Positions 2,274 through 55,450 of a stretch of 64,000 nucleotides of DNA are shown piece by piece. A program made the position numbers and the translations under genes. The notes beneath the pieces were generated by a model. That model was not told the DNA's origin, did not search any database, and saw nothing but the letters and a program-made list of their open reading frames with translations. The first letter of the stretch is position 1; every line of letters starts with the position of its first letter. The stretch is from Phycisphaerae bacterium (GTDB lineage: Bacteria > Planctomycetota > Phycisphaerae > WQYP01), in the NCBI GenBank assembly GCA_035524355.1, contig DATKPA010000035.1, positions 12,425-76,424 of the forward strand, read 5' to 3'.

Positions 2274-3100
2274 GACCGGCCCCCTTCGAAAAGGCTCCCC
2301 CCCCCTACCGCGGCGGGCGAGGTGGTGAGGGAGGCTTCGTCGAGGAAGTCGAGGACTTCGGGATCGTTGCTTTGGCGGAGTTCGGCGGGCGAGCCTTCGA
2401 CGGCGCGATTTTTGAGGAGCAGGAGGATGTGGTCGGCCATGCGCATGGTGGAGGGGATGTGGTGGGAGACGACGATGAGGGTCATGCCGGACTCGCGGTT
2501 GATACGGACGAGGAGTGATTCGATGCGTTTGATGGAGACGGGGTCGAGTCCAGAGAAGGGCTCATCGCACATGAGAATGAGGGGGTGTCGGAGGATGGCG
2601 CGGGCGAGAGCGACGCGGCGGAGCATGCCGCCGGAGAGCTGGCCGGGGAGGAGGCGGTCGACATCCTGGACGCCGACGGACTGGAGTGCGGCGTGGATTT
2701 CGGAGGCGATTTGCAATTCGCCGAGGGGAGGCTGGATGCGACGTTCGCGAAGAGGGATGGCGAGGTTGTCAAAGACGGTGTAGGAGTCGAGGAGAGCCCC
2801 GCCCTGGAAGACCATGCCGAGCTTTTGACGGACCTGGAAGAGAGCGCGTTGGGAGAGCCTCGTGATTTCCTCGCCGTCGACGACGATACTGCCGCGCTGA
2901 GTACGGATGAGTCCGCCGATGAGGCGGAGGATGGTGCTTTTCCCTGAGCCGCTGCCGCCGAGGATGACGGAGATGCGTCCCTTGGGGAATCCGCAGGAAA
3001 GGGAGTCGAAGACCTTCCGCGTACCGAAGCACATTCGTACATCATTTAGGGAGACATGGAACACCGATCTCTCAGGCTCCTTGAAAACAAAACGCAACAT
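2270..3100 (-). CDS. mlaF: MlaF ABC transporter ATP-binding protein
   Basis: Walker A GGSGSGKS, signature LSGGM, Walker B LMCDEP. ATGA overlap with mlaE. Start uncertain (ATG 3100 or GTG ~3064); the ORF-track extension to 3313 looks non-coding. Confidence 0.9.
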   Translation of the reverse strand: MLRFVFKEPERSVFHVSLNDVRMCFGTRKVFDSLSCGFPKGRISVILGGSGSGKSTILRLIGGLIRTQRGSIVVDGEEITRLSQRALFQVRQKLGMVFQGGALLDSYTVFDNLAIPLRERRIQPPLGELQIASEIHAALQSVGVQDVDRLLPGQLSGGMLRRVALARAILRHPLILMCDEPFSGLDPVSIKRIESLLVRINRESGMTLIVVSHHIPSTMRMADHILLLLKNRAVEGSPAELRQSNDPEVLDFLDEASLTTSPAAVGGGSLFEGGRS

Positions 3101-3460
3101 CGCCCCACTACGATAGGCGCGCCGAGGTGGCGATTTCTGCCTATCGGAAGCATCATAATGGTTTTTGGCGATTTGGCGACAGGATGCCGCATGGGGATGG
3201 CCAGGGGAATTTGTTTGGTGGGATGGCGCCGCCCAACTACAATGAGAGCCGGGGATTGGGCGGTGGACTCCGCATACTCGATTTCCAACACAATCCTCCT
3301 CTCGTGAAAACACGCGCAGTGGACTGGCGGCAGGGAACGAAGTGGCACGTCACGGATGATACATTCGTACATATCAAATTCTTAATATATCTTTCCGAAT
3401 CGAGGGTAGTCATAGGGAGAGAGCTGTAACAGGTCGAGAGAATAACCTTCAAAGGAAGGA

Positions 3461-5161
3461 GTGTGGACCATGGCAGGAAGATCAGCAAAGCGCACGTCGG
3501 GGTGGAAGCAGAGGAAAGAGCGGCTGATCGAAGCACTGGAATCGCGGATTCTGCTGACGGGATATTCGGGGACCGATACGTTCGATTCGGGGCCGGGCGC
3601 GTTCGAGATTCAGGAGCTCACGACGGTGGCGACGGCGACGACGTACATCCGGCTGGACTCCACCGGCGCGAACATTCAGATCTACAATGCCTCCACTCCA
3701 ACGGGCACGCCGATGACGTTTCCGGTGGGGAGCGTTTCGTCGATCAATGTCAGCCCGACGACGGGGAACGATCTGCTCGTGGTGGATTACAGCAACGGCG
3801 ATCCTGTTCCGTCCGGCGGCATCAGCTACACGGGCGGGGGCAGCAGCGCCGGGAACACGCTGCAGATCATCGGGGCTTCCACAGCGGATGCTTTCACGCT
3901 GCATGCCGGATCGGTCGTTCACGGAAGCGGTACGGTGACGTACAGCAATATGCTTAACTTGACGCTCGGCACAGGCGCGTTCACCACGGGCGATGATTTG
4001 AATCTGCTTGACGTCAAGGTGAACACCCAGACCGTTCTGAACGCGACGACGATTGAGCATATCGGGCAACTTACCGTGAATCCCGGCGGAACCGCCACGC
4101 TCAGCGGATTCTTCGGGAACATGATCGTGAACGGCTCGGTGCAGCTCGTTCCGGACGGAACCAACGCGGCCACCTGCGCGCTCAATAACCTGCTGCTCGC
4201 CGGAAGCACCAACAACTGGTCGGGGCAATTCGATCTGACGAACAACAAGCTGATTGTCGAAACGACGGCGGGAAACAAGGCGGCGACTCTGGCGACGATA
4301 CGCAACCAGGTACTCTATGGGATGACGCACTCGACGGGGATTGTGAGCACGGCCCTGCCGGCCGGGACGCTCATCGCGGTGATTGACGCCGCGATGACGA
4401 CACTGACAGCCTTTGGCGGGGTGGCGATCGATGCGAATTCGATTTTGATAGGGCCGGAGCTGGCCGGCGATGCGGATGTGAGCGGAAATGTGGATTTGAC
4501 CGATCTCTCCGCGGTTCTCAACCATTTCGGCGCCATGACGCCTGACTGGACCAGCGGGAACTTTGATTACACGGCCACCGTGAATTTGACGGACCTGTCG
4601 TACGTTCTGAACAACTTTGGCGCATCAATAGCGAATCCGACCGGCGCGACCCCCGCTGCGCAGCCGGCTGCTGGTTCGCAGGAAACGGAAGTTCCGACGG
4701 ACTTGTCCGCAGCGGCTACTGATTCATCGAGTTCAGTTCCGGGAACGATCCTGACTTCTGCGGTTGCGATTCCGGTCGGCGCGGAGGCCGGTGATGAAAT
4801 CGCGCCTTCGAACAGTACCGGCCAGTTGCTGCCGGATAGGGTTATTGTGCCGACGGGACTTGCCGCGGCCGGAGTTCCGGCGCCGATCACTTCGGTGATT
4901 GGCGCGACCACGCCGTCGGTACCGGCGCAAATCAGCGCACAGATCGCGATATTGCCGACTACCCCGCTGATCTCGCATGCCTCTTCGGTGTCGTTGCGGC
5001 CGGGCAATGCAGGGCATCCGGTGCACTCGACGACACTTTCACCGCGCGTCCAAGCGGGACATAGTTCCGGCATTGCGACATATGCGCCCCGCGGGCACCG
5101 CCATTGGCTGGCGGGAGGAGATCGGAAGCACGATCTCGATCCAGAGGCGCTTGACGTGTAA
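3461..5161 (+). CDS. Planctomycete-type secreted/surface protein with C-terminal dockerin-like repeat pair
   Basis: N-terminal 'LIEALESRILL' (planctomycete export signature). Thr/Gly/Ser-rich beta-strand body. Duplicated 'GDADVSGNVDLTDL...GNFDYTATVNLTDL' dockerin/EF-hand-like repeats and a low-complexity tail. Confidence 0.7.
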   Translation: MWTMAGRSAKRTSGWKQRKERLIEALESRILLTGYSGTDTFDSGPGAFEIQELTTVATATTYIRLDSTGANIQIYNASTPTGTPMTFPVGSVSSINVSPTTGNDLLVVDYSNGDPVPSGGISYTGGGSSAGNTLQIIGASTADAFTLHAGSVVHGSGTVTYSNMLNLTLGTGAFTTGDDLNLLDVKVNTQTVLNATTIEHIGQLTVNPGGTATLSGFFGNMIVNGSVQLVPDGTNAATCALNNLLLAGSTNNWSGQFDLTNNKLIVETTAGNKAATLATIRNQVLYGMTHSTGIVSTALPAGTLIAVIDAAMTTLTAFGGVAIDANSILIGPELAGDADVSGNVDLTDLSAVLNHFGAMTPDWTSGNFDYTATVNLTDLSYVLNNFGASIANPTGATPAAQPAAGSQETEVPTDLSAAATDSSSSVPGTILTSAVAIPVGAEAGDEIAPSNSTGQLLPDRVIVPTGLAAAGVPAPITSVIGATTPSVPAQISAQIAILPTTPLISHASSVSLRPGNAGHPVHSTTLSPRVQAGHSSGIATYAPRGHRHWLAGGDRKHDLDPEALDV

Positions 5162-5277
5162 CATGGGCGTTCGAAGGGGGTTTTGCGGGAAATCGGCAAG
5201 TATCTATAATTCCGAGGAACCGTTGCCGCCGGTCGAGCGCCGCAATGCACACAACCTTCATGTGCGAGATCTGCTGA

Positions 5278-5508
5278 ATGAAGCCTCCCAAGAACTACAT
5301 TGAGTCATACAAACTGGAAGGCGTGAATTACCAGCTGGAAATTGAGGAGGATGCGGGGGGATTCTGGGGGGCGTGGAAATGCCTCGAATGCAAGCAGAAC
5401 GGGCCGAGCACGCCAAAGTGCGGGTCGAAGGAGGAAGCGATGCAGGGGGCGATCCGGAACCTTGGGCCGCACCATCAGGTGATGCACGGGCTGCAGCGGA
5501 AGTTTTGA
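5278..5508 (+). CDS. Small hypothetical protein with HicB-like N-terminal pattern and CxxC
   Basis: 'YQLEIEEDAGGFWGAWKCLECK...CGSKEEAMQGAIRNL' loosely resembles the HicB fold. No clear SD. Confidence 0.45.
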   Translation: MKPPKNYIESYKLEGVNYQLEIEEDAGGFWGAWKCLECKQNGPSTPKCGSKEEAMQGAIRNLGPHHQVMHGLQRKF

Positions 5509-6044
5509 ACGGGACGTAATTGATGGGATTGCGGGGCGGGAGCCTGTACATTTCATGGCGTCTTCTCTGGCGTTGACTGCATCGCGGCGGGCGATCGCGG
5601 ACGTGGCGAGTACGCTTCCCGCTTCGAGTTGCCCTACCGTCGGGGAGCGGATTCCGTAGGAAGATCGGGCCATTCTTGGGGCGTGTCGTCCTGGGAGGAG
5701 GAGCACCTGCGGGGGATCGCGGCGCGGCTGCAGAGGTCAAAAAGCGGCTGAAATGCAGAGTTTGGCGTTGTTTTCCGCCGGCGGGCGCATCGAAGATTCC
5801 TGGGGAATCCCCCGATTGGGAGAGGGATTCGGGCGTTTGATGCACGAAATGAGCGGATTTTTCCGCAGAAAACTTGCTGAGTTTGCGTCGGCGGTTTATA
5901 AAGTTGCCAAAGAATTGCAGTGAAACAGCGAGTCATGCCGAAATAAACAATCGAAAATGCCTGTAAAACAAGGCTATTCGTTGAAACCGAACATCGTTAA
6001 CAAGTCCCTCATTCCTGGAAACCATTTTTAGAAAGGACCACACT

Positions 6045-45497: not shown

Positions 45498-46463
45498 ATG
45501 TGCCTCCCCATCTTCCAGAAGCATCCTTTGCTCCTCCTCTTCGTCTTCCTTCTCTCAAGTTTTTCCGCTGGCTGCGCTTCGCAGAAAACCTTCTCCGATC
45601 CCGACCTCGCCGTCGATGCCCTGGTCTCCTCTTTCCGCACCAACGATCAGGATCAGACCCGCCGCATCCTCGGCCCCGCCGGCGATGAACTCCTCTTCTC
45701 CGGAGATCCCGTCGAAGTCCAAACCGGACTCCAGAAATTCCTCCACGCCTACGACGAGAAACACGAACTCAGCGCCAATGACGACGGCACCGTGACCCTC
45801 TCCGTCGGCGACGACGAATGGCCCATGCCCATCCCGCTCGCCAAAAACGATAAGAATGCCTGGTACTTCGATACCGAGGCCGGAAAGGATGAAATCCTCA
45901 ACCGCCGCATCGGACGCAACGAACTCGACACCATCCAGACCATGCTCGCCATCAACGACGCCCAGCGCGAATACGCCGAAACCGATCCCGACCACGACGG
46001 TGTCCCCGCCTACGCCCAGAAATTCCTGAGCGACCCCGGCAAAAAGAACGGACTCTACTGGCAGACAAAGGAAGGCGAGCCCGACAGCCCCCTCGGTCCC
46101 CTCGTCGCCACCGCCGCCAGCCAGGGCTACACCCATGCCACAAACGACGAACCCCAACCCTACCGCGGCTACTTCTACCACATGCTCACCGCCCAGGGTC
46201 CTTCCGCCCCCGGCGGCGCTCGCGATTACATCGTCAACGGCCAGATGCTCGGCGGATTCGCCGTCGTCGCCTACCCCGCCACCTACGGCAACTCCGGCAT
46301 CATGACCTTCATCATCAACCAGGACGGCACCGTCTACCAGCGCGACCTCGGCGAAGACACCGCCAAGCTTGCCATCCAAATCACCACCTTCGACCCTGAC
46401 GACAACTGGAAGAAAGTCGACGCCAAAGACGAAACTCCGCCCACCACCCAGCCGGCAAATTAA
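45498..46463 (+). CDS. DUF2950 family protein
   Basis: 'WPMPIPL', 'RRIGRNELDTI', 'GKKNGLYW', 'SPLGPL', 'PATYGNSGIMTFIINQDG'; follows DUF3300 as usual for this pair. Confidence 0.9.
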   Translation: MCLPIFQKHPLLLLFVFLLSSFSAGCASQKTFSDPDLAVDALVSSFRTNDQDQTRRILGPAGDELLFSGDPVEVQTGLQKFLHAYDEKHELSANDDGTVTLSVGDDEWPMPIPLAKNDKNAWYFDTEAGKDEILNRRIGRNELDTIQTMLAINDAQREYAETDPDHDGVPAYAQKFLSDPGKKNGLYWQTKEGEPDSPLGPLVATAASQGYTHATNDEPQPYRGYFYHMLTAQGPSAPGGARDYIVNGQMLGGFAVVAYPATYGNSGIMTFIINQDGTVYQRDLGEDTAKLAIQITTFDPDDNWKKVDAKDETPPTTQPAN

Positions 46464-46570: not shown

Positions 46571-46900
46571 TCAGGCGGAGAACGAGCTGCCGCAGCCGCA
46601 CGTGTGCGTCGCGTTGGGGTTCTTGAACACGAACCCGCGGCCCATCACCTCGTCCTTAAAGTCGATCTCCGTCCCGTTGAGGTACAGATACGACTTGCGG
46701 TCCGCGAGGATCTTAATTCCATGGCATTCCATGATTTCATCGTTTTCTGGCGCCGATTCCGTCAGGTCCAGAACGTAGGAGAACCCCGAGCATCCGCCGC
46801 CTTTGACGCCAACGCGAAGCGCCACGCTCTCCGCCAACCCCTGATCCTTGATGATGGACCTAATTTCCTTCGCCGCCGCTTCCGAAAGTGTAATGGCCAT
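46571..46900 (-). CDS. iscA: HesB/IscA/SufA A-type Fe-S carrier
   Basis: 'MAITLSEAAAKEI', 'GVKGGGCSGFSY', 'NPNATHTCGCGSSF'; AGGAG SD. Confidence 0.95.
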   Translation of the reverse strand: MAITLSEAAAKEIRSIIKDQGLAESVALRVGVKGGGCSGFSYVLDLTESAPENDEIMECHGIKILADRKSYLYLNGTEIDFKDEVMGRGFVFKNPNATHTCGCGSSFSA

Positions 46901-46943
46901 GAATGGGCTCCTGAGTTCAGTAGAACGTAAATCGTTGCCAATC

Positions 46944-46973
46944 ACTATAGTCGGCGGTCCGCCATCAAGGCAA
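46944..46973 (-). promoter_or_regulatory. Candidate sigma70 promoter of iscA
   Basis: TTGCCT-N18-TATAGT on the minus strand. Confidence 0.55.
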
Positions 46974-47030
46974 GAAGCGCTTTTCCGGGAAAACATCGAG
47001 GGGAATTGGCGGCACCCAGACCGCCAAGAC

Positions 47031-47097
47031 CCAGACCGCCAAGGTGCGTGTGTCAATGGCGGTCTCCCCCCAACTCCGATAGGAATTGTAGGGATTG
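47031..47097 (+). repeat. 67-bp dispersed repeat, family B copy 2
   Basis: 62/67 identity to the reverse complement of 17073-17139. Its left end carries a perfect 15-bp tandem duplication, ACCCAGACCGCCAAG x2 (47014-47043). Confidence 0.85.
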
Positions 47098-47190
47098 AAT
47101 AAAAATAATCGCATCAGCGTAGATGGCTGTGAGTGGAGGCGCGAGCGGGGATGGGAGGATAGGGATTTGTGCGAAGGGAGCGGTTTGGTA

Positions 47191-47207
47191 TTGAAATTGA
47201 GTCTCAA
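47191..47207. promoter_or_regulatory. Candidate iron-responsive operator (Fur/Rrf2-type) upstream of sufB
   Basis: TTGA-AATTGAGTC-TCAA palindrome (TGA-N9-TCA), ~30 nt upstream of a TAGAAT hexamer at 47236. Confidence 0.5.
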
Positions 47208-47357
47208 CACGCTGGGTTTTTTGCCCCAGTTCCCCTAGAATGTGGTCTCTGGGTGGCTTCGGCGGAAGCCGGGGCATCGGGGAGGCGGATTGCCGGATTA
47301 TAGCGGCACCAGGAAGAAGATCGCGGGTCCTCGCCGGACAGCGCTGGGAGTAAAGCA

Positions 47358-48812
47358 ATGCCTACTTCAACCGAAACAATCGAAGAGCTGGCCAGCCAGG
47401 AATACAAATGGGGCTGGAGCGCCAACGTGGAAGCGGACGAAGCGCCGCCGGGGCTGAATGAAGAGATCGTGCGGTTCATTTCGGCAAAGAAGAAAGAACC
47501 GCAGTGGATGCTGGATTGGCGCCTGAAGGCGTATCGGCACTGGCTGACGATGAAGGAGCCGAACTGGGCAAAGGCGGAGTATCCGCCGATCGATTACCAG
47601 GCGACGAAGTATTACTCGGCCCCGAAAGCGAAGCCGAAGTCGATCGATGAGGTCGATCCGGAACTGCTTGCCGTCTATGAGAAACTCGGGATCCCCCTTC
47701 ACGAGCGGGAAGCGTTGTTGGGAATCGAGGAGCCGAAGGTTGCCGTCGATGCGGTGTTTGATTCCGTGTCGGTGACGACGACTTTTCAGAAAAAGCTCGG
47801 GGAACTGGGGATCATCTTCTGCGGATTCGGGGAGGCGGTGCAGAAGCATCCGGAGCTGGTGAAGAAGTATCTGGGAACGGTGGTGCCGTACTCGGACAAT
47901 TTCTTTGCGACGTTGAACTCGGCGGTGTTTACGGACGGGTCGTTTGCGTACATTCCGAAGGGCGTGCGCTGCCCGATGGAACTGTCGACGTACTTCCGCA
48001 TCAATGCGCGGAACACGGGGCAGTTTGAGCGGACGCTGATCATTGCAGATGAGGGGGCTTACGTCAGTTATCTTGAAGGGTGCACGGCTCCGCAGCGGGA
48101 TGAGAATCAGTTGCATGCGGCGGTGGTGGAACTGGTGGCGCTTCCGGGCGCGACGATCAAGTATTCCACGGTGCAGAACTGGTATCCGGGCGATCCGAAG
48201 AGCGGGAAGGGCGGGATTTATAATTTTGTGACGAAGCGCGGGAAGGCGTTTGAGAATTCGAAGATCACGTGGACGCAGGTGGAAACCGGGAGCGCGATCA
48301 CGTGGAAATACCCGAGCTGCATTCTGCAGGGGGATAATTCGGTTGGGGAGTTCTATTCGGTGGCGCTGACGAATCATTATCAGCAGGCGGATACCGGCAC
48401 GAAGATGATTCACATCGGGAAGAACACGAAGAGCACGATCGTTTCGAAGGGCATCTCGGCGGGCTTTGGGCAGAATACTTACCGTGGATTGGTGAAGATC
48501 ATGCCGAAGGCGGAGAATGCGCGGAATTACACGCAGTGCGATTCTTTGCTGCTGGGGGACAAGTGCGGGGCGCATACTTCGCCGTACATTGAGGTGAAGA
48601 ATAAGTCGTCGCGTGTGGAGCATGAGGCTTCGACGTCGAAGATTGGCGAAGATCAGTTGTTCTACTGCAAGACGCGCGGGATTGCGCTGGAAGATGCGAT
48701 CAATATGATTGTGTCGGGGTTCTGCAAGGAAGTGTTCCGGGAGTTGCCGATGGAGTTTGCGGTGGAGGCGCAGAAGTTATTGGGGGTGTCACTCGAAGGC
48801 TCCGTGGGTTAA
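47358..48812 (+). CDS. sufB: Fe-S cluster assembly protein SufB
   Basis: 'YKWGW', '[12 protein letters not shown]', '[12 protein letters not shown]', '[16 protein letters not shown]'. Confidence 0.97.
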
Positions 48813-48815
48813 GTG

Positions 48816-49019
48816 ATGCCAAAGAAGATACGGGAATTGAAAAGCATGCTCAGGAACGCAGGTTGGATTCTTATTGAAGGGGGGAAGGGGAGCCATACGA
48901 AGTGGATGCATCCGCGAGTTGCGAGGCGGTTGATCCTCTCCGGAAAAGATGGAAGTGACGCAAAGAAGTACCAGGAAAAGGATGTCGCACGCGCGATCCA
49001 GGAGACGTCCGGTGAGTAA
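48816..49019 (+). CDS. hicA: Type II toxin HicA (dsRBD-fold mRNA interferase)
   Basis: 'KIRELKSMLRNAGW...GKGSHTKWMHP...LILSGKDGSD'; GSH catalytic motif. GTG 48813 or ATG 48816 start. Confidence 0.88.
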   Translation: MPKKIRELKSMLRNAGWILIEGGKGSHTKWMHPRVARRLILSGKDGSDAKKYQEKDVARAIQETSGE

Positions 49020-49311
49020 GAAAGCGGTCGAGAAAGCGAACAAATACAGCGTCATCATCCAGTGGTCTGAGGAAGATGAGGCGTTTGTGGCGACGCTTCC
49101 GGAATGGGGCGGATGCCACACGCACGGCGCAACGTACGAGGAGGCGGCGAAGAACGCGCGAGAGGTCCTCGAATTGCTCATCGAGACGGAACAAGAGGAA
49201 GGTCGCGAGTTGCCTCCGGCCCACGGGTTCATGTTTCCGGGGCCAACTGGCTTTACGTACGAACTTAATCATCTCACTCCAGTACGAAAGGTTCGGCATG
49301 TCACTGCTTGA
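49012..49311 (+). CDS. hicB: Type II antitoxin HicB (short form)
   Basis: GTG start after CAGGAG; 'YSVIIQWSEEDEAFVATLPEWGGCHTHGATYEEAAKNAREVL...LP'. Confidence 0.9.
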   Translation: MSKKAVEKANKYSVIIQWSEEDEAFVATLPEWGGCHTHGATYEEAAKNAREVLELLIETEQEEGRELPPAHGFMFPGPTGFTYELNHLTPVRKVRHVTA

Positions 49312-50074
49312 GATTCGGAATTTGCATGCGGAAGTCGCCGGCGGCGGGCGGAAGATTTTGAAGGGGGTCGATCTGACGATCGATACCGGGGAAATTCACG
49401 CGATCATGGGGAAGAACGGGTCGGGGAAATCGACGCTTTGCCAGGTGCTGGCGGGGCGGGAGGTGTATGAAGTGACGGAGGGTCAGGTTCTTTTTCATGG
49501 GAAGGATCTGCTGGAAATGGCTCCGGAAGAACGGGCGCGCGAGGGAATGTTTCTCGGATTCCAGTACCCCGTTGAAATTCCGGGCGTCTCCACGAGTTAC
49601 TTCCTCAAGGCTGCGGTCAACGAGACCCGCAAGCACCATGGCCAGCCAGAACTCAATGCCGCGGAGTTTCTCCATTTGATCAAGGAAAAGATGAGCCTGC
49701 TGGAAATGGACTCCACGTTCATGAACCGGGCCATCAACGAAGGGTTCTCCGGCGGTGAGAAGAAGCGAAATGAGGTGTTCCAGATGGCGGTGGTGAGTCC
49801 GCTGCTGGGCCTGCTCGACGAAACGGACTCGGGTCTGGATATCGACGCGCTCAAGACGGTCGCCAACGGGGTCAACAAGATCCATCAGTCGGACAAGAAC
49901 AAGGCGATTCTGCTCGTCACGCACTACCAGCGGCTGCTGAACTACATCGTGCCGGACAAGGTGCACGTGATGATGGATGGGCGGATCGTGAAGAGCGGCG
50001 GCAAGGAACTGGCGCTGGAGTTGGAAACGCGCGGGTACGATTGGATTGAAGATGAAGTGGCCTCGAAGGCCTGA
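49298..50074 (+). CDS. sufC: Fe-S cluster assembly ATPase SufC
   Basis: 'MGKNGSGKST', 'FQYPVEIPGV', 'FSGGEKKRNE', 'LDETDSGLDIDAL', 'VTHYQRLL'. Confidence 0.97.
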   Translation: MSLLEIRNLHAEVAGGGRKILKGVDLTIDTGEIHAIMGKNGSGKSTLCQVLAGREVYEVTEGQVLFHGKDLLEMAPEERAREGMFLGFQYPVEIPGVSTSYFLKAAVNETRKHHGQPELNAAEFLHLIKEKMSLLEMDSTFMNRAINEGFSGGEKKRNEVFQMAVVSPLLGLLDETDSGLDIDALKTVANGVNKIHQSDKNKAILLVTHYQRLLNYIVPDKVHVMMDGRIVKSGGKELALELETRGYDWIEDEVASKA

Positions 50075-50142
50075 TGTAGGCGCATGCTTCCCCGGCCCAA
50101 AGGCCGGGGCTAAACCGGAAAGACCAGACGGGGTTATTCAGG

Positions 50143-51501
50143 ATGACCAGTTTGCTTGAACAAACGAATAGTTTTGTGAAGAGCTTCGAAACCACACCGG
50201 GGCACTCGCGTCCGTGGGTGAACGAGCTGCGCGAGAGCGGCATCGACGCGTTCCGCCGGCTTGGGTTTCCGACGACGAAGCAGGAAGAATGGCGCGACAC
50301 GAACGTTGCCACCGTGGCGAATACGACGTTCGCGCCCGCGCCGGTGGTGACCGGCCAGACGACCATTAATCTGTTCAACCAGTACACCTTCGGCAAGGAG
50401 GCCGCCGCCGAGCTCGTGTTCATCAACGGCCACTTTGATGCCCATCTGAGCACGGTCAGCGCGCTTCCAAGAGGGATTCGGGTGCAGAGCCTTGAACAGG
50501 CGTTCCAATCTGATGCCGTGATCCTCGAAAAGCATTTGGGGAAGCATGCGAAGATTTCGGAGCATCCGTTTGCCGCGCTGAATACGGGGTTTGTGCGTGA
50601 AGGGGCGTTTGTACACGTCGCGCGCGGGGCCACATGCGAGAAGCCGATTCACCTGCTGTTTTTGACGGTGGCGACGGGGCAGACGATCGCGAGTCATCCG
50701 CGCGTGCTGGTGATTGCAGAGGAGAACAGCGATTCGTCGATCGTGGAGACGTATGCGGGCACGAACGGGGCGATTTATCTGACGAATGCGGTCACGGAAA
50801 TCGTGCAGGAGAAGAATGCCCGCATCGATCACAACAAGCTGCAGCAGGAGGGGAGCGACGCGTATCACATTGCGCTGATGCAGGTGAATCTGGCGACTTC
50901 CAGCCTGTTTGTGAGTCACTCAACGAGCATTGGGAGCAAGCTGACGCGGAATGATCTGCATGTGTTCCTTGGCGGCGAACGTGCGGAAGCCACGCTGAAT
51001 GGCCTTGTGCTGGCGAAGGGCGAACAGCATATCGACAACCACACGCTGCTGCACCACGAGAAGGCACATTGTCCGAGCCATGAGCTGTACAAGCACGTGC
51101 TCGGGGATAATGCGACGGGGGTGTTCAAGGGGAAGATTTTTGTGCAGAAGGACGCGCAGAAGACGGACTCGAAGCAGACGAGCAAGTCGCTGCTTCTGAC
51201 GGATACGGCGTTCATGAATTCGCAGCCGGCGCTGGAGATTTATGCGGATGACGTGAAGTGCACGCACGGTTCGACGATTGGGCCGGTGGATGAGAATGCG
51301 GTGTTTTATTTGATTTCGCGCGGGTTGAGTTTGGCGCAGGCGCGGCATCTGATGACGTATGCGTTTGCGGCGGATATCACGCGGCGTATTCGGGTGGGGC
51401 CGGTGCGGGCGCGGATTGAGGATTTCATGGCGGCGCAGCATGGGTTGCCGCTGGATCTGCGGATTGCGGATGAGGCGCGGCATGATGTGGCGCTGCTGTG
51501 A
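50143..51501 (+). CDS. sufD: Fe-S cluster assembly protein SufD
   Basis: 'PTTKQEEWR', 'FAALN', 'FKGKIFV..DAQKTD', 'PALEIYADDVKCTHGSTIG'. Confidence 0.95.
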   Translation: MTSLLEQTNSFVKSFETTPGHSRPWVNELRESGIDAFRRLGFPTTKQEEWRDTNVATVANTTFAPAPVVTGQTTINLFNQYTFGKEAAAELVFINGHFDAHLSTVSALPRGIRVQSLEQAFQSDAVILEKHLGKHAKISEHPFAALNTGFVREGAFVHVARGATCEKPIHLLFLTVATGQTIASHPRVLVIAEENSDSSIVETYAGTNGAIYLTNAVTEIVQEKNARIDHNKLQQEGSDAYHIALMQVNLATSSLFVSHSTSIGSKLTRNDLHVFLGGERAEATLNGLVLAKGEQHIDNHTLLHHEKAHCPSHELYKHVLGDNATGVFKGKIFVQKDAQKTDSKQTSKSLLLTDTAFMNSQPALEIYADDVKCTHGSTIGPVDENAVFYLISRGLSLAQARHLMTYAFAADITRRIRVGPVRARIEDFMAAQHGLPLDLRIADEARHDVALL

Positions 51502-51568: not shown

Positions 51569-51580
51569 ATTTGGAATTGG

Positions 51581-51613
51581 AAAGGGGCGATCAGGTGCCT
51601 GATCGCCCCTTTT
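51581..51613. terminator. Bidirectional terminator after sufD / GT41
   Basis: AAAGGGGCGATCAGG-TG-CCTGATCGCCCCTTTT followed by a T-run. Confidence 0.85.
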
Positions 51614-51675: not shown

Positions 51676-53466
51676 TTACCCGATATAGATGGGGTCGCGT
51701 TTGCCTTCTTTTTTTAGCTGGTCGTGGTTGGCGATGAGGTAGTCGATGGTTTGGAGGAAGTATTTGGCGGGTTCGGTGCTGTAGATGGTGGCATCGAGAT
51801 CGACGGGGAGGAGGCGGTTGTGGATTTCGGCGCGGTAGGCGTCGTCGTGGATCATGCGGTCGGCGAGGTTGAGGTATTCGTCTTCAGTGGTGGCGGTGCA
51901 TTCCTTCATGCCGACGAGGCGGAGCATTTCCGGGCCGATGCGGTTGTACCACTTGGTGCCTTCCCAGGAGATGGTGGGCAGCCGGAGCCAGAGGGAGTCG
52001 GAGATGGTGTTGCAGCCGCCGAAGTGGAAGGAGTCCATGGAGAAGTGGCCTTCCTCCATGAGGTTCATATAGCGTTCGTAATCGAGCTGTGGGAGGACTT
52101 CGACATGCTTTTCGCCGAGCTGTGCCCGGAGGTCGCGGACGAAGGGGATGTGGTCGTTTGCGCGGGCGGTGGAGTAGCCGATGAAGAGGCGGAAGACGAT
52201 GGGGCGTTTCGAGCGTTCGATGAGCTTCTTGAGCGTGAGGACGAAGGGGTAGTTGACCTTCTGGGTGTTCCAGGAGCAGTTGATGATGATGCGTCCGTCG
52301 TCCTTGGGTTTGCCGCCGATGGCTTTGTAGGTCGGTTTGTTGTGAATGACGCCCATGCCGGGGATGAGGACGAGGCGTTCGGAGTAGTTGACTTCGGGGT
52401 TTTCGGGGAGTTCGACGTCTTTGCCGCTGACGTAGTAATCCATGTCGGCGCCCCAGGTGCTGACGGAGTGGCCGGGCCAGCAGAGCTGGATGGGGGCGAT
52501 GCGGCGATTGGCGAGGAGGATGCTTTCCATGCACATGCCGACGTCGGGGTAGATGACGACCTGGTAGTCGTTGTCGCCGAGCTTGGACATGTTGGGCTGG
52601 CCGGTGGGGAGCGTGTTGACGACGTAGGTTTCGTCGAAGAGGCTGGTTTCCTGCGGGGCGTACTGGCCGAGCTCGAAGAACGTGAGGTGGTATTTTTCCT
52701 TGAGCGCCTTGAGGTAGTGATAATAGTTGCGGTAGACGGAATGTCCGGATTTCCAGTTCGCGCAGAGGACGGCGATCTTTTTTGGGTTCGGCCGGCTGAC
52801 GATGCGCGGCAGCATCTTCTCATAGCGCTGGATCGAGGCGTTCACGTGGGTCTTGATTTTCGTGTCGACTTTGCCGTCGATGTAGGTGGCGCCGAAGAAG
52901 ACTTCCTGCACATCCTGCGGGATGAAGAGGTTGGGGTGGCTGAACTCGAAGTGCTCCTTGAGGTTGTTCCATTCGAGCTCATTGAGGGTGGCGCTGTAGA
53001 AGATGCTGGCGTACTGGAGGTACCAGCGGGAGGCGATTTCGGGGGCGAGGTCGAAGAGGGCCTTGCGGTCGAACTTCACGGTGTTGCGGGCGTTGTAGAG
53101 CGTGAGCACCTGGACGAAATTGGCGGTCTGATCGCGCAGGATTTCGAGCCAGGGGTCGGTGTTCTTGAAGGAGGAGATGGAGACGAGGTTGCAGATGGTG
53201 CGGTTCATGTCGACGAAGTGGACGATGAAGCGTTCCGGGACGCGGAAGTCCGGCTGCGTGAAGATGAAGAGGAAGTTCTTCAGGAAGGAGTTGATGAAGT
53301 AGCGGCCCGGGCCGTCGAGCTGCTGCATCGTCTGGATTCGAAAATACTGCAGCACGTTGAGCATCTGCTCGCACATTTCCTCGGTGCGGCCGGCGCGGTA
53401 AAGATCGATGAGTGCCTGGGAATTGAACGTCGGAGGCGGGAGTGGCGCGGGTGCAGGCCGTGTCAT
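51676..53466 (-). CDS. GT41 family (HMW1C/SPINDLY-like) protein glycosyltransferase without TPRs
   Basis: 'HSVYR', 'YPDVGM', 'RIAPIQ..WPGHSVST', 'YSERLV', 'DSFHFGGCNT', 'LPTISWEG'. Confidence 0.8.
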   Translation of the reverse strand: MTRPAPAPLPPPTFNSQALIDLYRAGRTEEMCEQMLNVLQYFRIQTMQQLDGPGRYFINSFLKNFLFIFTQPDFRVPERFIVHFVDMNRTICNLVSISSFKNTDPWLEILRDQTANFVQVLTLYNARNTVKFDRKALFDLAPEIASRWYLQYASIFYSATLNELEWNNLKEHFEFSHPNLFIPQDVQEVFFGATYIDGKVDTKIKTHVNASIQRYEKMLPRIVSRPNPKKIAVLCANWKSGHSVYRNYYHYLKALKEKYHLTFFELGQYAPQETSLFDETYVVNTLPTGQPNMSKLGDNDYQVVIYPDVGMCMESILLANRRIAPIQLCWPGHSVSTWGADMDYYVSGKDVELPENPEVNYSERLVLIPGMGVIHNKPTYKAIGGKPKDDGRIIINCSWNTQKVNYPFVLTLKKLIERSKRPIVFRLFIGYSTARANDHIPFVRDLRAQLGEKHVEVLPQLDYERYMNLMEEGHFSMDSFHFGGCNTISDSLWLRLPTISWEGTKWYNRIGPEMLRLVGMKECTATTEDEYLNLADRMIHDDAYRAEIHNRLLPVDLDATIYSTEPAKYFLQTIDYLIANHDQLKKEGKRDPIYIG

Positions 53467-53659
53467 ACGTCAAAACCTCTCAGGGGAAACTGAAATAGGG
53501 ATGTGTACGGACCGCTAAGTATACCGGCGATCGCGCGGCGGCCAAGCGTTTCAATATTACCGGGCGTTGGGCGTTGGCCGGGGCGAACGCCGCTTGCGGG
53601 AGACCCGTCATCGGAAGGCGGATTAGTCGCAAGCGTCGCGGAAGGCTACAATCATGATC

Positions 53660-55450
53660 ATGACGCTGCAGGCTGAAAACCGCATGGGCACCTCGTCCCC
53701 GGTGAAACTCCACTGGGATGTGGATCGCATTCGCGCCGACTTCCCCATCCTCTCGACCACCGTTTCACGTCCCTCCCCCCCCCCCACACACACGCCCAGG
53801 CCGCTGGTGTACCTGGACAATGCGGCGACGACGCAGAAACCGCGTGCGGTCATCGATGCGATCGTCCGGTATTACGAATCTCAGAACGCGAACATCCACC
53901 GCGGGGTTTACCAGCTCAGTCAGACGGCGACATCCGCCTATGAGGGCGTGCGCGAGAAAGTGCGGTCGTTCGTGAACGCCCGTGAGAGTGCCGAGATCAT
54001 TTTTACTCGCGGGACGACGGAGGGGATCAACCTTGTCGCGAGCAGTTGGGGCCGCACGAACCTCCGGGCAGGAGATGAGGTGGTCGTCAGCCACCTTGAG
54101 CATCACTCGGACATTGTTCCGTGGCAGATGGTCTGCGAGGCGACGGGCGCGACGCTGAAGGTCATTCCGATTAATGACAGGGGGGAACTCGTTCTGGAGG
54201 AGCTTCAGCGCTTTCTTGCGGGCGGGCATGTGAAGATCATCGCGGTGAATCATGTGAGCAATTCTCTGGGGACGATCAATCCTGTTGGCGAGATCTCCCG
54301 CATGGCGCACGCTGCGGGGGCCCGCGTTCTGATCGATGGCGCGCAGTGGGTCGCGCACGGGAAAACCGACGTGCAGGCCCTGGACGCGGACTTTTACGTC
54401 TTCAGCGGGCACAAGCTGATCGGGCCAACCGGCATTGGCGTTCTTTACGGGAAGCGCGAACTGCTCGATGCGATGCCGCCCTACCAGGGCGGCGGCGACA
54501 TGATTGCGTCGGTCACTTTCCCCAGGACGGAGTACGCTGCGCTTCCGAACAAATTCGAAGCAGGCACGCCGGATATTGCGGGTGTCGTCGGTCTGGGCGC
54601 GGCCATCGATTACATCAACGCGCTCGGGCTTGATCAGATCGGGAGCTATGAGCACGCGCTTCTCACGTACGCCACTGAGAAGTTAAGTGGCGTACCCGGG
54701 CTGAAGATCATCGGCACCGCCGCGAAGAAGGCCGCAGTTGTTTCCTTCATCATGGAAGGACATTCGACGCTCGACATTGGAATGAAGCTCGATCAGGAAG
54801 GCATCTGCGTGCGCACCGGCCACCATTGCTGCCAGCCGGTGATGGAGCGGTTCCAGATTGGGTCCACGGCGCGGGCCTCATTTGCGTTCTACAACACGCG
54901 AGAGGAGATCGACGCGCTCGTGGCCGCCCTGCACAAGATAGCAGGCTCCAAATCGGCTACGCGGGACTTCGCTCCGCACGCCGCCCCCGCCACGGTTGAA
55001 TATCCGAAAGCCACGGCGCCATCGCCCCGTGCTGCGGCCGCAAAACTCGCCGAAGACTTCGAGCTCCTTGGCGAACGCGACGCGCGTAATGAATACGTCC
55101 TGGACCTCGCGGATCGCCTTCCGCACACCTTCGACCTGCTCAAAAAAGTCACGCCGCGCGTGCAGGGGTGCATGAGCCAGGTGCATCTGCTGGCCCGCAG
55201 ACAGCCGGGCTCCACCGACATTGTTGAATTCGTCGCCGACGCCGATGCCGACATCGTCCGCGGCCTGATTGCCGTGCTGCAACGCATCTACTCCGGCCAG
55301 CACGCCAAGGACATCCTCGGCTTCAACATCGAGGAATTCTTCAACCGCATCGGACTCGACGGCTTCATTACGTCGCAGCGACGCAACGGCCTGGCCGGCA
55401 TGGTTGCAAGAATCCGTGAGCGCGCAAAGGAAATCGCCGACGGCAAATAA
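53660..55450 (+). CDS. sufS: SufS cysteine desulfurase fused to C-terminal SufE
   Basis: 'YLDNAATTQKP', PLP-lysine 'SGHKLIGPTG', 'RTGHHCCQP'; SufE part 'VQGCMSQV...ADADIVRGLIAVL...ITSQRRNGL'. Start 53660 is inferred from TACAAT-N7-ATG (alternatives 53654, 53684). Confidence 0.93.
   Translation: MTLQAENRMGTSSPVKLHWDVDRIRADFPILSTTVSRPSPPPTHTPRPLVYLDNAATTQKPRAVIDAIVRYYESQNANIHRGVYQLSQTATSAYEGVREKVRSFVNARESAEIIFTRGTTEGINLVASSWGRTNLRAGDEVVVSHLEHHSDIVPWQMVCEATGATLKVIPINDRGELVLEELQRFLAGGHVKIIAVNHVSNSLGTINPVGEISRMAHAAGARVLIDGAQWVAHGKTDVQALDADFYVFSGHKLIGPTGIGVLYGKRELLDAMPPYQGGGDMIASVTFPRTEYAALPNKFEAGTPDIAGVVGLGAAIDYINALGLDQIGSYEHALLTYATEKLSGVPGLKIIGTAAKKAAVVSFIMEGHSTLDIGMKLDQEGICVRTGHHCCQPVMERFQIGSTARASFAFYNTREEIDALVAALHKIAGSKSATRDFAPHAAPATVEYPKATAPSPRAAAAKLAEDFELLGERDARNEYVLDLADRLPHTFDLLKKVTPRVQGCMSQVHLLARRQPGSTDIVEFVADADADIVRGLIAVLQRIYSGQHAKDILGFNIEEFFNRIGLDGFITSQRRNGLAGMVARIRERAKEIADGK

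Follow-up and report, generated by a model that had tools for sequence, protein, structure and literature searches.

HicAB toxin–antitoxin cassettes between sufB and sufC: a repeatedly occupied slot inside an essential iron–sulfur operon of Phycisphaerae

Toxin–antitoxin (TA) modules are usually described as self-regulated mini-operons, located in islands or between operons. The HicB antitoxins characterised to date carry a C-terminal ribbon-helix-helix (RHH) or helix-turn-helix (HTH) domain for autoregulation, a feature that is not universal in the family, and for the cognate toxin of Streptococcus pneumoniae His36 of HicA is essential for RNase activity (PMC6159526). In a published model, TA islets, which stand alone between core genes, are spread by homologous recombination in their flanks and are eroded by pseudogenisation of the toxin (Belot, Rocha, Van Melderen et al., Mol Biol Evol 2026, PMC13617665). 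The present analysis concerns a hicA–hicB pair lodged between sufB and sufC in the SUF iron–sulfur (Fe–S) cluster operon of a Phycisphaerae bacterium, within a stretch of 64,000 nucleotides (nt) of contig DATKPA010000035.1 (positions 12,425 to 76,424), hereafter the window. No published description of TA cassettes in suf operons was found in the literature. The pair is probably a selfish, promoterless and addictive TA cassette that sits in an intra-operon hotspot and is exchanged by recombination anchored in sufB and sufC.

The five genes follow one another on the plus strand in the order sufB-hicA-hicB-sufC-sufD. The sufB gene (47358–48812, 484 residues; SUFBD_core E=2e-79) ends with a TAA stop codon at 48810–48812, and hicA (48816–49019, 67 residues, TAA stop codon at 49017–49019) begins only 3 nt past it. 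The ATG at 48816 was taken as the hicA start, and the in-frame GTG at 48813 as spacer, because the homologues all begin with MPKKIRELK. The hicB gene (49012–49311, 99 residues) starts with a GTG, 7 nt downstream of a Shine-Dalgarno (SD) sequence, AGGAG, read at 49000–49004 on the plus strand (duplex energy −7.4 kcal/mol), and overlaps hicA by 8 nt upstream and sufC by 14 nt downstream. The operon continues with sufC (49298–50074, 258 residues; an ATPase, ABC_tran E=9e-21) and sufD (50143–51501, 452 residues; SUFBD_core E=7e-78, SufBD_N E=1e-23), and a terminator-like hairpin with a 15-bp stem followed by a T run (51580–51613, plus strand; consensus scan) closes the transcription unit. Both genes flanking the cassette are well conserved: the last 150 residues of SufB are 93–97% identical to those of relatives in the same family, and SufC is 92% identical to its counterpart in a genome of the same genus (G001).

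These coordinates and spacings reproduce base for base those of the preliminary description of the locus, which had also noted that the spacing leaves no room for a separate promoter or terminator. In agreement with this, a consensus scan of 48600–49400 detected neither promoter-like nor terminator-like sites. The only space for a promoter of the whole unit is the intergenic region between sufA and sufB (47057–47357), to which it is assigned by position; a consensus scan of this region gave no sigma-70-like site on the plus strand, and an operator search no inverted repeat. The arrangement strongly implies that hicAB would be expressed from the suf promoter. With 3-nt spacing, no promoter-like site and no DNA-binding domain in HicB (see below), the window pair does not conform to the canonical autoregulated type II TA operon with its own promoter and operator.

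The assignment of the two small genes to HicAB, likewise made in the preliminary description, is backed by Pfam matches, fold models and Foldseek alike. HicA matches HicA_toxin (PF07927) with 37.3 bits, where the cut-off is 27 (E=3e-9), and its alignment-based AlphaFold2 (AF2) model, with a predicted local distance difference test (pLDDT) value of 89, has the alpha-beta-beta-beta-alpha topology of a fold like that of the double-stranded RNA-binding domain (dsRBD) (helices at residues 5–14 and 51–65, strands at 18–20, 27–32 and 35–42). The top six Foldseek hits were all HicA toxins (5YRZ_B, 1WHZ, 4P78_C, 6G26_E/F and 4C26; probability 0.96–1.0). Gly25-Ser26-His27 is invariant among 31 homologues and comprises the predicted catalytic residues, and the protein aligns with the S. 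pneumoniae toxin across GGKGSH. By family and fold, HicA is a dsRBD-fold toxin, and it would be expected to act as an RNase.

HicB matches HicB_lk_antitox (PF15919) with 39.4 bits against a cut-off of 27, though the match covers only positions 1–58 of the 123 in the profile. The AF2 model shows a beta-beta-beta-alpha core at residues 15–63 (pLDDT 82–87), for which the top 16 Foldseek hits were all HicB N-domains of partial RNase H-like fold (root mean square deviation 1.4–2.6 Å), followed by a disordered tail at residues 70–99 (pLDDT <50). No Pfam domain was found past residue 70 and no RHH or HTH DNA-binding domain was aligned by Foldseek, which bears out the earlier remark that this 99-residue protein has no such C-terminal domain. 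The idea that this lack makes the suf-embedded HicB special was rejected, as the HicBs at the two other HicA loci of the source genome (65–78 residues) and those of about 70 cyanobacterial relatives are equally short, the latter likewise without a DNA-binding domain. The window HicB carries the motif FMFPGPTGFTY of its clade in the tail (49222–49254). Two such motifs, F[MQI][FY]PGP[ST]GF[TS]Y and LFHYPGADVVD, which exclude each other, show conservation among the HicBs embedded in suf operons; both are predicted to be disordered and are absent from free-standing relatives.

The distribution of the arrangement was assessed in genomes that are all metagenome-assembled genomes (MAGs). In the GTDB family of the window, 3 of 45 species, from three genera, carry hicAB between sufB and sufC (G000, G005 and G031); the usual spacer between the two suf genes in this family measures 21–141 nt. 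A class-wide profile search confined strong matches to two families, the second of which (f6; MAGs labelled Tepidisphaeraceae by NCBI) contains one in 32 of its 141 species and 24 of its 76 genera. All 32 of these loci were fetched, and every one reads sufB-hicA-hicB-sufC-sufD. Protein searches returned many HicA and HicB homologues at 60–90% identity, the nearest at 77–90%. The homologue lay between sufB and sufC in all eight of the metagenome contigs that were looked up, which reach 2.3 Mb and extend down to 51% HicB identity, and likewise in all ten matches from named Phycisphaerae (MAGs with the NCBI labels Tepidisphaeraceae, Tepidisphaerales or "Phycisphaerales"), while the roughly 70 cyanobacterial relatives are free-standing. 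The geometry is also shared, hicA typically starting 3–6 nt past the sufB stop codon and the 14-nt overlap of hicB and sufC being the same in nine loci. The possibility raised in the preliminary description that the cassette might occur in this strain only is contradicted by such wide recurrence, though the junction of the same-genus sister G001 is empty, with 48 nt between the two suf genes.

Comparison with that empty junction shows where the cassette entered. The last ~25 codons of hicB run through the ancestral sufB–sufC spacer, including the SD-like AAAGG of sufC, so that the old spacer and the ribbon of sequence serving as the sufC ribosome-binding site are kept in the 3' end of hicB (G001, CTCACTGGCTGAAAGGTAAAC; window, CTCACTCCAGTACGAAAGGTTCGGC). 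The survival of the spacer in this position places the insertion point immediately after the sufB stop codon. As had been stated before, no transposase or target-site duplication is visible: the open reading frame (ORF) list holds no transposase-like ORF around the window locus, and no repeats were seen at the cassette edges on reading the junction sequences, for which no formal repeat search was run. Neither is there a compositional anomaly, and the G+C content is unremarkable. In three genomes of one genus (G017, G035 and G026; loci L013, L014 and L015), the otherwise empty sufB–sufC spacer is filled with units resembling repetitive extragenic palindromes, CACAGAGGACACAGAGAACACGGAG, partly as inverted copies.

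The cassettes do not share the history of their hosts. A tree of HicA and HicB resolved at least three lineages in the sufB–sufC slot: type I, which includes the window and has the tail motif F[MQI][FY]PGP[ST]GF[TS]Y, type II, with LFHYPGADVVD, and type III, which has no tail motif and groups with a free-standing pair of a Schlesneria MAG. This tree conflicts with that of SufC, in which sister hosts carry differing cassette types, and an approximately unbiased (AU) test rejected a tree in which the three cassettes from the window's family form one clade (p=1e-4). The clearest case of exchange is offered by two loci of near-identical hosts, L049 and L051, whose suf genes are 93–95% identical at the nucleotide level with a synonymous divergence (pS) of 0.21–0.29, whereas their hicA and hicB genes are only ~78% identical with a pS of 0.73–0.84. 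The identity steps down and up again at the sufB stop codon and ~47 nt into sufC. As the pS of the cassette greatly exceeds that of its flanks, the cassette allele long predates the divergence of its hosts, which in turn indicates that recombination within the suf flanks has replaced one allele by another. The low nonsynonymous divergence (pN) in the same comparison (0.10 for hicA and 0.06 for hicB) relative to pS indicates purifying selection on both genes. Absent from a same-genus sister, incongruent with the host tree and swapped between alleles, hicAB is not a vertically fixed component of the suf operon. Ancestral presence followed by simple loss was also considered as the whole story and is ruled out by the AU test, the contrast in synonymous divergence and the relics described below.

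A gap survey of class and phylum samples, in which genomes with sufB and sufC on one contig were counted, showed that the junction accommodates far more than hicAB. Inserts of more than 250 nt separate the two genes in 22 of 53 junctions in f6 and 6 of 13 in f18, set against a low base rate of 5 of 85 (6%) among Planctomycetota outside Phycisphaerae. The TA-related occupants comprise ParE-Phd pairs (G336, G371 and L049, and in another class G694, with ParE E=1e-20), tandem hicAB pairs (G470) and antitoxin-only arrays (L047/G406, and an orphan Phd in G236). A DUF3990 gene with a small partner (G156 and G004), small membrane ORFs, 23S-rRNA-IVP four-helix-bundle genes (PF05635; loci L175–L180 of f18) and GxxExxY PD-(D/E)XK genes (PF13366; L188, L190 and L191 of f76) were also found in the slot. 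The PF05635 and PF13366 families are both known from rRNA intervening sequences, and their presence between sufB and sufC suggests that conserved operons are targeted as well. In some families, the junctions L177–L180 (f18) and L181, L182 and L184 (f12, f21) hold a DUF1858-like protein with a rhodanese domain (~180–196 residues) and a Rieske [2Fe-2S] ferredoxin (~105–130 residues); it is plausible that these are genuine SUF accessory factors. In G004, the closest relative of the window by SufC (L011, 560–1500), the DUF3990 gene is seemingly frameshifted (141 and 72 residues) and accompanied by a 96-residue partner; a 1-nt insertion in sufB of the same genome, either real or a MAG error, replaces the last residues EGSVG by GRIRGLNRDEQPTQ. 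Several SufB matches from Planctomycetota (G550, G515, G696, G694, G648 and others) lie in open frames of 600–1089 residues compared with the usual ~485, and could represent extensions, fusions or inteins.

Where cassettes degrade, the toxin goes first. The hicA gene is truncated or gone while hicB is kept in G321, G192, G341 and L047, and an in-frame stop codon was found in L133. The suf operon of L047/L148 (G406; 2960–5600) contains antitoxin-like genes only, with no detectable toxin: the sufB–sufC junction holds a 223-residue ORF whose C-terminus resembles HicB, followed in the list of contents by a Phd-like gene and hicB, and a second Phd-like gene is placed between sufC and sufD.

Two junctions retain fragments of suf genes that may record how cassettes arrive. 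L049 reads sufB, ParE, Phd, relic, hicA, hicB, sufC. Its relic joins 75 nt from the sufC 5' end, which share ~85% identity with the resident copy, to ~105 nt from the sufB 3' end, and the fusion point coincides with an 18-nt microhomology between the DILKGV codons of sufC and the MIVNGF codons of sufB. In G316, ordered sufB, hicA, hicB, relic, ORF90, sufC, ~133 nt from the sufB 3' end make up the relic, which shares ~88% identity with the resident copy and begins at the same NMIVNGF codons. Among the 26 junctions of more than 150 nt in the gene set, L049 alone contained such relic fragments; the one in G316 was found separately. Both fit the products expected from joins anchored by sufB homology with an illegitimate or microhomology-based far end, or from a duplication of the slot through microhomology. 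None of the junctions examined showed a recombinase or transposase. With regard to integron-type cassettes, reading of the cassette boundaries revealed no shared repeat, nor the examined flanks an integrase, although no formal attC model search was made.

A probable life cycle of the cassette can be outlined from these data. hicA and hicB would be transcribed as part of sufB-hicA-hicB-sufC-sufD, from a promoter ahead of sufB down to the hairpin that follows sufD, and translation may be chained, with the hicA ATG lying 3 nt past the sufB stop codon, the hicB GTG within the end of hicA behind AGGAG, and the sufC ATG within the 3' end of hicB. The HicB N-domain would neutralise HicA by covering its catalytic histidine. 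In two Phycisphaerae families, the slot immediately past the sufB stop codon serves interchangeable promoterless cassettes, namely HicAB of at least three lineages, ParE-Phd, and DUF3990 together with its partner. Gain and swapping would proceed by recombination anchored in the conserved 3' sequence of sufB and 5' sequence of sufC, either as homologous replacement or through homology-facilitated illegitimate or microhomology joins. Once installed, a cassette would be retained by purifying selection and, presumably, by addiction, and additionally because a deletion would have to be precise to leave sufC and sufD unharmed, while loss would occur mainly through prior decay of the toxin.

Several points weigh against this proposal of a selfish, exchanged cassette. 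For the window's own cassette, no recombination breakpoint was seen in comparison with G001, G004 and G010, which at ~78% nucleotide identity are uninformative; as the relatives of the window are too diverged, the evidence for exchange comes from sister lineages and not from the window locus. Part of the conflict between the trees could stem from ancestral tandem arrays that underwent differential loss, and persistence under purifying selection in two families would also be expected of a useful function. Absences from MAGs are less certain than presences, but those junctions that are empty were read directly. Gene spacing suggests co-transcription and translational coupling, and both the toxicity of HicA and its neutralisation by HicB are predicted from sequence and models. 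The predicted SD strengths of hicA and hicB, finally, show no consistent difference over the loci and so do not account for the toxin:antitoxin ratio. A weaker SD for hicA than for hicB was tried as a general mechanism and rejected, since the difference in the window (−5.2 versus −7.4 kcal/mol) shrinks to medians of −6.1 versus −6.5 over 21 loci.

The preliminary description had offered two readings of the locus, a selfish module hiding in an essential operon and a coupling of Fe–S stress to growth arrest. The former is favoured by the patchy distribution, the several TA families in the slot, the swapping of alleles, the toxin-first decay and the relic sufB ends. According to the latter, hicAB would be a domesticated stress module: iron limitation or oxidative stress would raise HicA together with SUF from the suf promoter, and a faster turnover of the tail-bearing HicB would free the RNase, leading to growth arrest or to reshaping of the mRNA pool, possibly including suf mRNA, until Fe–S supply recovers. 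The operon-internal spacing, a HicB without autoregulatory domain, the purifying selection on both genes, the lineage-specific tail motifs (F[MQ]YPGPSGFTY and LFHYPGADVVD) found only in suf-embedded forms, and the retention of the cassette by 23% of species in f6 would all suit such a role. However, co-transcription lifts toxin and antitoxin alike, so activation needs an extra step, and toxins decay while antitoxins persist, with cassette alleles being swapped rather than co-inherited. As the cassette is not vertically fixed, and is lacking in the same-genus sister and most relatives, stress coupling receives no specific support from conservation, and it is not favoured given that unrelated cassettes (ParE-Phd, DUF3990 and further small genes of a selfish type) make equal use of the slot, which close relatives leave empty. 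We therefore regard it as doubtful. A composite of the two, in which the sufB–sufC junction of Phycisphaerae acts as an integrase-free exchange site where promoterless TA and other small cassettes circulate between lineages on short sufB-3' and sufC-5' arms, and where suf-promoter dosage tracks Fe–S demand and so gives a stress-triggered arrest or abortive response, appears unlikely.

The diverse and rapidly replaced content of one site between core genes could also be taken to mean that the cassettes are anti-phage cargo acting by abortive infection, for which the suf junction would provide a permissive, well-expressed site with conserved flanks. Core-gene defence hotspots are documented in other bacteria (PMC10250203), TA systems can act in phage defence according to published abstracts, and for DUF3990 PADLOC gives matches to two candidate systems, PDC-M13 and PDC-M10. 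On the other hand, PADLOC returned no match for HicA, HicB, ParE, Phd or IVP, none of the ~60 junctions contained a recognised multi-gene defence system, and TA loci rarely cluster with defence systems (Belot et al. 2026, PMC13617665). This explanation is considered improbable. That the cassette is a neutral recent insertion private to the source genome, or an assembly artefact, might be suspected from its absence in G001 of the same genus and from the nature of the source genome, an 85%-complete MAG in 128 contigs. This is refuted: the same arrangement is present in over 35 independent genomes at species level as well as in metagenome contigs of up to 2.3 Mb, and its presence in so many independent assemblies, including multi-megabase contigs, excludes an assembly artefact; moreover, both genes have a pN/pS far below 1 and the nearest homologues are only 77–90% identical.

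The surroundings of the operon in the window hold further genes, some of them of the SUF system. A sufA-like A-type Fe–S carrier gene (46571–47056, minus strand; Pfam Fe-S_biosyn E=4e-20) is divergent from sufB, and the suf region is closely preceded by a gene for a DUF2950 protein (45498–46463; Pfam E=5e-112). A sufS-sufE fusion (53654–55450, plus strand; Aminotran_5 E=3e-143, SufE E=1e-30) is parted from sufBCD by an opposite-strand gene for a 596-residue GT41-like glycosyltransferase (51676–53466). In the loci labelled Tepidisphaeraceae, sufSE directly follows sufD, and Rrf2-sufA stands ahead of sufB. No IscU/NifU-type scaffold was found in the source genome, at its 85% completeness, and SUF is thus probably its sole Fe–S assembly system.

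If the proposed selfish cassette is a correct description, an essential operon can be a long-lived harbour and exchange site for selfish genes, and one that is highly conserved can at the same time provide expression, protection from deletion and the homology arms that horizontal spread requires. The loci described here form a set of TA modules without promoter and operator that live inside an essential operon and overlap its cistrons. For annotation, it follows that small genes within suf operons should not be called new Fe–S factors by guilt of association: in the very same slot, the Rieske and rhodanese proteins are probably accessory factors, while HicAB, ParE-Phd, DUF3990, GxxExxY and IVP are not. 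The locus also offers a natural system in which to study how toxin and antitoxin are balanced without transcriptional autoregulation, and whether stress regulons are hijacked to time toxin release.

Compared with characterised HicAB systems (E. coli K-12, 6HPB; Burkholderia pseudomallei, 6G26; Yersinia pestis HicA3B3, 4P78; S. pneumoniae HicBA, 5YRZ), the window pair has the same dsRBD-like HicA fold with its Gly-Ser-His, and a similarly folded HicB N-domain, the part that covers the catalytic histidine in the solved complexes (PMC6159526, PMC8138530). The gene order, hicA followed by hicB, is that of E. coli. The window pair differs in having no promoter of its own, in overlapping the flanking essential genes and in a HicB with a clade-specific disordered tail motif; without an RHH or HTH domain, autoregulation through a HicB-bound operator cannot operate. 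The closest sequence relatives outside Phycisphaerae are short stand-alone pairs of the HicB/UPF0150 type (Thermus thermophilus TTHA1756, 2YZT, and TTHA0281, 2DSY; cyanobacterial HicBs of 68–75 residues with HicA), with 57–71% identity over the HicB N-domain and 56–67% in HicA. These likewise have no DNA-binding domain, but they are free-standing, often in tandem arrays, never beside suf and without C-terminal tail motifs.

Another selfish element of the SUF machinery is the SufB intein of mycobacteria, a protein-splicing element inside the sufB reading frame whose imprecise loss is lethal. Both lodge in the same machinery, but the cassettes described here are separate genes between cistrons and have no homing endonuclease. 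Core defence and integration hotspots, for instance those of Pseudomonas aeruginosa (PMC10250203), resemble the suf slot in being a fixed site between conserved genes with variable accessory content. Here, however, single small cassettes of 0.3–1.5 kb lie inside an operon in place of multi-gene islands between operons, and no recognised defence systems are among them.

The evolutionary behaviour of the suf slot cassettes matches that of TA islets in core-gene intervals (Belot et al.), with which they share the absence of mobile-element genes, a patchy spread, independent acquisitions in the slot, toxins that are pseudogenised first and recombination anchored in the flanks. They depart from the islets in lying between neighbouring cistrons of a single essential operon, in being promoterless and, as their spacing suggests, translationally chained to these cistrons, and in having relics indicative of illegitimate joins, facilitated by homology, at a defined point of sufB. 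New is thus a TA interval between the cistrons of an essential operon, a slot that has been reused by several TA families and is in use across at least two bacterial families.

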